Shown here one piece after another: positions 34,150 through 35,161 of a stretch of DNA of 64,000 nucleotides (positions within the stretch are counted from its first letter, which is position 1; every line of letters starts with the position of its first letter). Source of the DNA: Escherichia coli (GTDB lineage: Bacteria; Pseudomonadota; Gammaproteobacteria; Enterobacterales; Enterobacteriaceae); assembly GCF_013315695.1 (NCBI RefSeq), contig NZ_CP054353.1; one strand, given 5' to 3'. The notes beneath the pieces are model-generated. The model was not told the origin of the DNA. It saw only the letters and a program-made list of their open reading frames with translations, and did not search any database. The position numbers and the translations under genes are program-made.

Positions 34150-34168
34150 TAATTAGCTCAAGTAATCA

Positions 34169-34196
34169 AGCCCTGGTAACTGCCAGGGCTTTTTTA
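34169..34196 (+). terminator. rne intrinsic terminator
   Basis: Stem gccctgg/ccagggc followed by tttttattt, 20 bp after the rne stop. Confidence 0.75.
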
Positions 34197-34222
34197 TTTC
34201 AGGGGTAGCATCTTTGCTGTAA

Positions 34223-34251
34223 TGACATTAGCGTTACATGTGCTGTATAAT
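34223..34251 (+). promoter_or_regulatory. Putative sigma-70 promoter of the toxin-antitoxin operon with overlapping inverted repeats
   Basis: TGACAT (34223..34228), 17-bp spacer, TATAAT (34246..34251); palindromes TAATGaCATTA, ACATGT and ATAATTAT in and around it. Confidence 0.45.
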
Positions 34252-34282
34252 TATCATCCACGCAAAGCCGAAGGATATATTT

Positions 34283-34576
34283 ATGCCAGCAGCCAATAAC
34301 ATTCCAGCCAGGCGCGAATCTTTAAACTTGCGCATAAAACCCGCAGAACGCGATCTTATTGACCGGGCCGCTAAAGCCCGAGGAAAAAATCGCACCGAAT
34401 TTGTCCTTGAGGCCGCCAGAGCCGCAGCTGAAGAGGCGCTCATTGAGCAGAGAATTTTCAGGATCGATTCTGATGATTACCAGCTATTTTTGAATCGTCT
34501 GGATCAGCCCCCCGCGCCCAATGCTGCATTACGCAAAACCATGCAAACACCCGCGCCGTGGGAGCAAAAAAAATGA
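34283..34576 (+). CDS. DUF1778 ribbon-helix-helix antitoxin (TacA/AtaR-like)
   Basis: 97-aa ORF from ATG 34283 with RBS AAGGA 7 nt upstream: [59 protein letters not shown]...; ORF-track start 34238 rejected (lies in promoter, no RBS); stop TGA overlaps toxin ATG. Confidence 0.8.
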
Positions 34577-35067
34577 TTCAGGCCCCCGAGCCACTCATGG
34601 CAAGGCATCAATTCACCTCTTTTTGCTCGGGAGTAGAAACGATGGATAACTGGCTAAAGCAGAGAGCCCTAAAAAATCAGCTTGCCGGCGCATCACGTAC
34701 ATTTGTTAGCTGTGATACGTATAGCAACGTTTTGGCATATTATTCGCTTGCTTCCAGCGCCGTTGAAACGTATGTCGCGACAGGACGATTTCGCCGAAAT
34801 ATGCCAGAACCGATCCCTGTTGTAGTACTTGGTCGTCTGGCAATAGATAAATCATTACAGGGTCAGGGCATCGGTCGTGCGATGGTCAGAGATGCCGGTC
34901 TACGAGTACTACAGGCGGCTGAAGTCATTGGTATTCGCGGAATGTTGGTCCATGCGTTATCAGACCAGGCCCGTGAGTTTTATCTGCGAGTGGGGTTTGA
35001 ACCATCGCCTGTCGATTCTATGATACTGATGGCAACATTGGCTGATTTGCAGGAATGTCTTAAATAG
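34573..35067 (+). CDS. GNAT-family acetyltransferase toxin (TacT/AtaT/ItaT-like)
   Basis: 164-aa ORF from ATG 34573 ([17 protein letters not shown]...); acetyl-CoA motif in ...[23 protein letters not shown]..., conserved Tyr in EFYLRVGF; ATGA overlap with upstream antitoxin. Confidence 0.85.
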
Positions 35068-35083
35068 TTCGTTATGTCTCATG

Positions 35084-35118
35084 CAAAAAAATGCCCGCCC
35101 CGGCGATCCCAGAGCAGG
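35084..35118 (-). terminator. Probable flgL terminator
   Basis: On the minus strand an imperfect GC-rich hairpin (ugccugc...gcgggca) followed by U7; the plus strand has no U-tract. Confidence 0.35.
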
Positions 35119-35161
35119 CAGACAAAACATACCCAGTTTCATGATATGTTTTAAAGCGAAA

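Follow-up and report, generated by a model that had tools for sequence, protein, structure and literature searches.

A TacAT-type toxin-antitoxin cassette between rne and flgL in Escherichia coli

The window analysed here is the whole 64,000-nucleotide (nt) stretch of Escherichia coli DNA taken from contig NZ_CP054353.1 of assembly GCF_013315695.1. Within it the convergent genes rne and flgL (Table 1) are separated by an intergenic region of 1012 bp (34150-35161), a length already given in a sequence-only reading of the same DNA. The greater part of this region is an islet of 882 bp that carries a toxin-antitoxin (TA) operon and is missing from strain K-12. The anatomy of the islet, its relatives, its distribution and its probable history are described below.

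The rne-flgL locus and the parts of the islet

In K-12 MG1655 flgL ends at 1140986 and the rne stop codon lies at 1141182, which leaves a spacer of 195 bp between the genes; the value of about 245 bp given in the sequence-only reading was too high. The net gain of the window over K-12 is 817 bp, in agreement with the islet of roughly 0.8 kb described there. The alignment with K-12 proposed in that reading for setting the breakpoints showed the two sequences to run in parallel up to 34200, including the rne terminator, and to resume their collinearity at 35083 with the flgL terminator. Between these points 882 bp (34201-35082) stand in place of a 64-bp spacer, which in K-12 reads ATCTTTGAATC...CAAAATAG. 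The event was a replacement of the K-12-type spacer and no clean insertion; about 57-64 bp were removed, and there was no target duplication.

The left border of the islet is the intrinsic terminator of rne, the sequence of which is the same in K-12 up to 34200; the segment 34150-34215, which contains it, folds at -24.8 kcal/mol (z -4.4). The right border is FlgO, a sigma-28-dependent small RNA (sRNA) derived from the 3' untranslated region (3'UTR) of flgL (PMC10578931). FlgO is annotated in K-12 as b4826 (1140986-1141063, 78 nt directly after flgL), is matched at 78 of 79 nt in the window, and folds on the minus strand into its two hairpins (-31.4 kcal/mol, z -3.9). Because the alignment breakpoints fall at 34200 and 35083 and FlgO is intact, the islet occupies exactly the gap between two convergent terminators, neither of which is disturbed.

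Within the 882 bp lie a promoter and two open reading frames (ORFs) that overlap, and the earlier description of the extra DNA as filled by a TA operon with its promoter was accurate. A ribosome binding site, GAAGGA (34270-34275), lies 7 nt upstream of the antitoxin ATG, and the toxin start overlaps the antitoxin stop in the tetranucleotide ATGA (34573-34576). With a ribbon-helix-helix (RHH) antitoxin, a GNAT toxin and a coupled bicistronic operon under its own promoter, the pair is a TacAT-type type II TA system. An imperfect inverted repeat, GTAATGACATTAGCGTTAC, overlaps the operon promoter at 34219-34237 and, by analogy with the autoregulation seen in the family, is likely to be the TacA operator. 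The promoter/operator region is kept in the tacAT2 loci of Klebsiella and Salmonella. The plus-strand hairpin at the end of the toxin operon is weak (-14.2 kcal/mol, z -1.6); the operon is without an evident terminator of its own and may read antisense into the FlgO sRNA and flgL.

The islet is a minimal cassette. A three-way alignment with the tacAT2 operons of Klebsiella and Salmonella shows homology from about 34217-34219 onwards, and outside the homologous operon there are only 16 bp on the left (34201-34216) and 15 bp on the right (35068-35082). The last 7 nt of the left filler, ATCTTTG (34210-34216), are also the first 7 nt of the K-12 spacer. The left filler may be a remnant of the short spacer, though a 7-mer match could be due to chance. 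This short match hints that the cassette entered after ATCTTTG and displaced the remaining 57 bp or so.

Table 1. Features of the rne-flgL locus in the window
Feature	Position	Strand	Basis and remarks
rne	30964-34149	+	convergent with flgL
rne intrinsic terminator (hairpin and T tract)	34168-34200	+	terminator scan; in both alleles; left islet border
Islet, 882 bp, missing from K-12	34201-35082	+	K-12 alignment; six islet-negative spacers; 686/5426 genomes; clade II
Left junction filler, AGGGGTAGCATCTTTG	34201-34216	+	not homologous to Klebsiella/Salmonella tacAT2 loci
Sigma-70-type promoter (ATGACA, 18-nt spacer, TATAAT; 11/12 matches)	34222-34251	+	promoter scan
tacA-like antitoxin, 97 amino acids, RHH/DUF1778	34283-34576	+	Pfam TacA1 PF08681; PDB 7AK7 chain C
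tacT-like GNAT toxin, 164 amino acids	34573-35067	+	Pfam GNAT domains; PDB 7AK7 chain A
Right junction filler, 15 bp, TTCGTTATGTCTCAT	35068-35082	+	alignments; toxin stop to shared flgL terminator
FlgO sRNA (flgL 3'UTR-derived) and terminator	35085-35162	-	right islet border, intact
flgL	35162-36115	-	convergent with rne

Two further observations concern rne itself. Upstream of the gene, at 30603-30939 (+), the Rfam element rne5 (RF00040), the autoregulatory element of the RNase E 5'UTR, is complete (260 bits, E 1.5e-81). In the C-terminal half of rne a 12-bp in-frame indel polymorphism lies inside a short direct repeat (window 33903-33914), and the gene measures 3174 bp in strains MS6198 and HS-02 and 3186 bp here.

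Family assignment and predicted function

The antitoxin matches Pfam TacA1 (PF08681) over residues 14-88 (E 1.5e-26), and the toxin matches the GNAT families PF13508, PF13673 and PF00583. PDB entry 7AK7 is the best solved structure for both proteins, chain C matching the antitoxin at 81.4% identity (E 1.4e-45) and chain A the toxin at 73.5% identity (E 7.7e-76). The toxin also matches TacT (5FVJ) at E 3.8e-44 and TacT3 (6G96) at E 2e-15. Chains that we take to be AtaT or KacT-type toxins match it only at E 1e-15 to 1e-20. The toxin retains the catalytic Tyr137 and Arg88 as well as the acetyl-CoA motif QGQGIG; the roles of Y137 and R88 have been described, and 6G96 named as TacT3, in PMC5959882. 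Tyr137 aligns with a Phe of the 7AK7 crystal construct, and in the work of Rycroft et al. TacT2 was inactivated by Y137F, TacT by Y140F and TacT3 by Y143F (PMC5959882). We infer, rather than read from the PDB entry, that 7AK7 is Salmonella TacAT2, because of the position of Y137F, the distant match to 6G96 (TacT3) and the 96-98% identity of 7AK7 to a Salmonella gene pair adjacent to rtsAB. Sequence comparison places the islet pair in the TacAT2/KacAT2 subclade (clade D), where its closest characterised relatives are TacT2 and KacT2 and not TacT, TacT3, AtaT or ItaT.

TacAT2 of Salmonella enterica has the same gene order as the islet, an RHH/DUF1778 antitoxin followed by a GNAT toxin with overlapping stop and start codons. 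The toxins are 73.5% and the antitoxins 81.4% identical, the numbering of Tyr137 and Arg88 is the same, the promoter/operator region is conserved, and DNA identity is about 70%. The Salmonella operon differs in its site, which adjoins rtsAB and fimbrial genes; in this comparison only Escherichia has the two junction sequences and the last five or so codons of the islet toxin. KacAT2 of Klebsiella pneumoniae (clade 2 GNAT-RHH, PMC9431474) shares with the islet its clade, a chromosomal location and the promoter architecture (toxin 73.9%, antitoxin 81.4% identity), but lies between cystathionine beta-synthase and a hypothetical/ParA region. KacT2 and TacT2 are in the same clade and about 88% identical (PMC9431474). 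The homologues in Salmonella and Klebsiella, whose DNA is about 70-72% identical to that of the islet, occupy unrelated chromosomal sites. Despite these different sites the two loci share about 60 bp upstream of the promoter, which are missing from the Escherichia islet; within them, GGTTCGATACTCCG bears a loose resemblance to a fragment of a tRNA T-arm and is a possible remnant of an old attachment site.

The other E. coli systems of this kind, AtaRT, AtaRT2 and ItaRT, belong to the same superfamily and share the general mechanism of aminoacyl-tRNA acetylation (PMC9177977), but are much more distant. The islet is a fourth, uncharacterised E. coli GNAT/RHH module beside them, and in O157:H7 genomes, from which AtaT and AtaT2 come, the rne-flgL site is empty. 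A scan of GTDB representatives with the toxin, the seeds of which were exact peptides specific to the islet toxin and which says little on close relatives, returned only relatives of 46-71% identity in other Proteobacteria and none in Escherichia or Salmonella. Toxins of 60-71% identity were scattered over the Alpha-, Beta- and Gammaproteobacteria (Mesorhizobium, Acidiphilium, Thiobacillus, Rhodoferax, Chimaeribacter and others), a distribution that indicates a very wide horizontal spread of this GNAT toxin subclade.

In vivo, Gly-tRNA-Gly is almost the sole substrate acetylated by TacT2 and other GNAT toxins of clade D (PMC9177977). From the 74% identity and the purifying selection described below, the islet toxin is predicted to arrest growth by acetylation of aminoacyl-tRNA, an effect that the cognate antitoxin would relieve. 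In RefSeq the genes are annotated generically, the antitoxin as 'type II toxin-antitoxin system TacA family antitoxin'. Scans with NCBIfam and PADLOC gave zero matches for either protein; there is therefore no curated equivalog, and the pair is not listed as a defence system. A literature search by protein accession and by combinations of gene names found, in the library searched, no paper dealing with the locus. Among public assemblies derived from reads there are fusions of TacA and TacT, 260 amino acids long (P0001, P0004), and a cluster of truncated toxins of 141 amino acids (P0006, 189 members), which may be frameshift or start-site variants, or sequencing errors.

Distribution and ancestral state of the locus

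The presence or absence of the islet, for which the sequence-only reading had suggested a population survey, was determined in 5426 complete E. coli genomes. The islet was found in 686 of them (12.6%), each time as one chromosomal copy and always at the rne-flgL site, and 681 of the 686 copies are at least 99% identical to that of the window. Joint matches across rne, islet and flgL were obtained in 684 genomes. Since the same 882 bp recur in 686 complete genomes, the islet is no assembly artefact. The K-12-type short spacer is present in 4735 genomes, and the remaining ones represent rare events such as an IS26 insertion. Carriers include the enteropathogenic strain E2348/69, the enteroaggregative strain 042, an isolate of sequence type (ST) 38, several avian pathogenic strains and environmental isolates. 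The site is empty in ST131, NU14, O157:H7, B7A and K-12.

Some variation was seen among individual records. Strain 042 and the ST38 isolate have a G run that is 1 bp shorter at the left junction (AGGGT as compared with AGGGGT; window 34201-34206) and share about five substitutions, which define a second islet allele of 99.4% identity found in many of the 686 carriers. A seemingly degraded copy in HS-02 (NZ_CP172818.1) was rejected as an uncorrected error of long-read assembly, with homopolymer junk in the middle of the islet (1260-1900); the same record is without the 15 bp TTCGTTATGTCTCAT, a gap that could reflect true variation at the junction or belong to the assembly error as well. In the islet-negative strain AZ 187 (NZ_CP184102.1) an IS26-family transposase and a hypothetical ORF are inserted in the rne-flgL spacer, and the site tolerates other insertions.

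The polarity of the two alleles was examined with related species. Salmonella was rejected as an outgroup, its rne-flgL spacer of 256 bp not being alignable to that of K-12 (P 0.83), and E. albertii and E. fergusonii were used in its place. E. albertii has an intergenic region of 197 bp, the central spacer of which aligns over its whole length with the 64-bp spacer of E. coli and contains no TA remnant. In E. fergusonii the intergenic region is 147 bp long and the central spacer is deleted. The K-12 spacer does not resemble the islet to a significant degree (P 0.46), and six islet-negative strains of differing background, presumably A, B1, B2 and E, have nearly identical 64-bp spacers. From the homologous short spacer of E. 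albertii, the lack of significant similarity between the K-12 spacer and the islet, and the near-identity among the six strains, the short allele is concluded to be ancestral in Escherichia and the islet allele to be derived.

The reverse polarity, in which the cassette would be ancestral at the site and the 64-bp spacer a deletion scar left by repeated loss, is very improbable. It would accord with the age of the islet, of which a 93% identical copy exists in another species (see below), and with the recurrence at the islet ends of ATCTTTG and AAATAG from the left and right ends of the spacer. Against this, the spacer of E. albertii is short, full-length, aligned throughout and free of TA remnants, the 64-bp spacer does not significantly resemble the islet, and independent deletions would not yield a near-identical spacer in six backgrounds.

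Age, spread and proposed history

A search at the protein level revealed a toxin of 96% identity in 'Escherichia sp.' E4385, E2562, E3659, E4694 and others, strains that represent cryptic clade II (PMC6639607). All clade II contigs examined have the gene pair at the rne-flgL position. The block has the same junction sequences as in E. coli and the same length, exactly 882 bp; the right filler TTCGTTATGTCTCAT is present with 2 substitutions. A search of clade II through FlgL proteins for empty-site alleles returned only contigs that bear the islet. DNA identity between clade II and the window is 93.3% in the islet, 91.9% in rne, 89.6% in flgL and 86.3% in flgK. The synonymous divergence (dS) is 0.16 in tacA and 0.20 in tacT, with ratios of nonsynonymous to synonymous divergence (dN/dS) of 0.08 and 0.12, respectively. 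In the flanks dS is 0.30 in the N-terminal part of rne (where dN/dS is not meaningful, nonsynonymous differences being zero), 0.59 in flgL (dN/dS 0.03) and 0.69 in flgK (dN/dS 0.06). These values suggest that the cassette has been at rne-flgL for a time comparable with the separation of the species and has been kept functional by purifying selection. A segment of FlgO that is 100% identical in the window and clade II was considered as a hint of introgression and rejected, as K-12 has the same haplotype, which points to conservation of the sRNA.

Decay is common in chromosomal TA copies, and the truncated (141 amino acids) and fused (260 amino acids) variants in public assemblies could be read as signs of it here. 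That the cassette is a decaying remnant without activity is nevertheless improbable, as both ORFs are intact in the window and in clade II under a dN/dS of 0.08-0.12, as the catalytic and tRNA-binding residues, ribosome binding site, ATGA overlap and 11/12 promoter are all intact, and as 681 of the 686 copies retain at least 99% identity. A parallel is ccdO157 in the folA-apaH region, likewise a small chromosomal TA cassette that replaces a short spacer, is without mobility genes and is polymorphic among E. coli. It differs from the islet in its family (CcdAB, a gyrase poison), in its locus and in its documented decay, whereas the islet is under apparent purifying selection.

Diversity within E. 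coli was compared in seven carriers from different backgrounds, for the islet and 600 bp on each side. Nucleotide diversity (pi) was 0.50% in the islet, as against 2.0% in the left and 2.3% in the right flank. Pairs of carriers are 99.1-100% identical in the islet and differ by 2-3%, in a mosaic manner, in the 600 bp that adjoin it to the left and right. Carriers and non-carriers that share a background have matching flanks. Between the window and SC477, a water isolate, there is no difference in the 882 bp of the islet, but there are 17/601 and 21/618 differences in the flanks (Poisson P ~1e-12). The carrier E2348/69 differs from the non-carrier NU14 at 2/618 positions in the right flank and 17/601 in the left, and from the window at 5/601 in the left flank and 1/882 in the islet. 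In the table of variable sites, haplotypes switch within about 100 bp of the islet edges. A nearly invariant islet on mosaic flanks is the mark left by homologous recombination within the neighbouring core genes. Little variation among carriers would likewise be seen for a long-lived allele at a frequency of about 13%, and is not by itself a sign of recent origin.

Signs of mobility were sought in the surroundings. ARAGORN found no tRNA within 20000-50000 of the window, that is, none within about 14 kb, and in the RefSeq annotation (isolate AF3) no mobility gene occurs within 12 kb on either side, all 29 annotated genes being core genes (pabC, fabFGDH, acpP, plsX, rpmF, yceD, yceF, rluC and rne on one side; flgL through flgN and murJ on the other). 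A repeat search at the islet ends (34201 and 35082) gave neither terminal inverted nor flanking direct repeats; the repeats found in the islet are short, internal and similar to chance matches. The G+C content, a comparison also proposed in the sequence-only reading, is 48.5% in the islet and 51.5% in the window, and the composition is unremarkable. Collections of plasmids and phages contained no genuine copy above 73% identity; 'plasmid' copies at 99.4% were rejected as mislabelled pieces of chromosome, as they carry rne and flgL. The islet is not a classical genomic island or integrative element, nor is it an insertion sequence (IS) or transposon, its only two ORFs both being TA components.

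A recent insertion by an IS, transposon, integron cassette, phage or plasmid, the traces of which were overlooked, is thus scarcely credible. TA modules are common cargo of plasmids and islands, and the Klebsiella homologue adjoins a ParA gene; however, no transposase, integrase, tRNA, terminal inverted repeat or target-site duplication occurs within 12-14 kb on either side, no plasmid or phage copy exceeds 73% identity, the G+C content is inconspicuous, and a copy diverged by 7% has identical junctions in another Escherichia species. The sequence-only reading had noted the same lack of integrase, transposase, IS terminal inverted repeats, tRNA and flanking direct repeats, and had proposed that the DNA was inserted long ago or acquired through homologous recombination, as opposed to having transposed recently. 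Both of its alternatives are borne out: the first by the clade II block with its shared junctions, 93.3% identity, dS of 0.16-0.20 and purifying selection, the second by the near-identity of the islet among carriers with mosaic flanks, and no signature of transposition was found.

The most probable history, which we hold with considerable confidence, is a single old entry of a TacAT2/KacAT2-type cassette after the split from E. albertii, followed by polymorphism through homologous recombination. The cassette would have entered the Escherichia chromosome once, by illegitimate recombination, at the expense of most of the ancestral spacer of 64 bp that separated the convergent terminators of rne and flgL/FlgO. 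The E. coli and clade II copies, by now about 7% different in DNA, would descend from this entry. Since then the islet would have existed as a presence/absence polymorphism, seen today in 12.6% of complete E. coli genomes, and would have been passed between lineages, and lost, through homologous exchange in the core genes on either side, the crossovers often falling right at the islet edges. The antitoxin would bind and neutralise the toxin and repress the promoter.

Several points weigh against this history. The original insertion left no trace, and illegitimate recombination is a default and not a finding. The phylogroup placement of carriers comes from named strains only (E2348/69 in B2, 042 and ST38 in D). 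The GTDB scan, with the limit set by its seeds, found no Escherichia species representative carrying the toxin, the sampling of other Escherichia species being thin, and at 74% identity the tRNA target could differ from that of TacT2. Finally, the dS of the islet (0.16-0.20) is lower than that of the flanks, and common descent and later introgression between species are therefore not distinguished. It is possible, if less than likely, that the cassette arose in one lineage, E. coli or clade II, and later crossed the species boundary by homologous recombination: islet dS is roughly half or less of that of the flanking genes (0.30-0.69), and recombination at the locus is demonstrably frequent within E. 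coli. Against such a transfer, no more than 186 synonymous sites enter the islet comparison, dS in rne and the flg genes may be unrepresentative of the genome as a whole, and the clade II flanks adjacent to the islet are clade II-like (rne terminator 87%, flgL 89.6% identity).

The islet is a real but fairly ordinary accessory element; its evolutionary pattern is typical of small chromosomal TA islets, and current understanding is not overturned. The polymorphism may, as opposed to drifting neutrally, be maintained by selection of a balancing or frequency-dependent kind in two or more Escherichia species, although we regard this as unlikely; if it were so, an abortive-infection or persistence function, or transcriptional interference at the locus, would be possible causes. 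The islet occurs in clinically important lineages (EPEC E2348/69, EAEC 042, ST38 and avian pathogenic strains; EPEC and EAEC denoting the enteropathogenic and enteroaggregative pathotypes). It would provide a clean and datable case of a mobility-free chromosomal TA cassette that has lasted for millions of years and spread solely by recombination of its flanks. Antisense read-through into FlgO and flgL, if it takes place, could couple the activity of the toxin operon to flagellar regulation, and the position of the islet against the FlgO terminator would make it a natural test of the effect of accessory convergent transcription on a core regulatory RNA.

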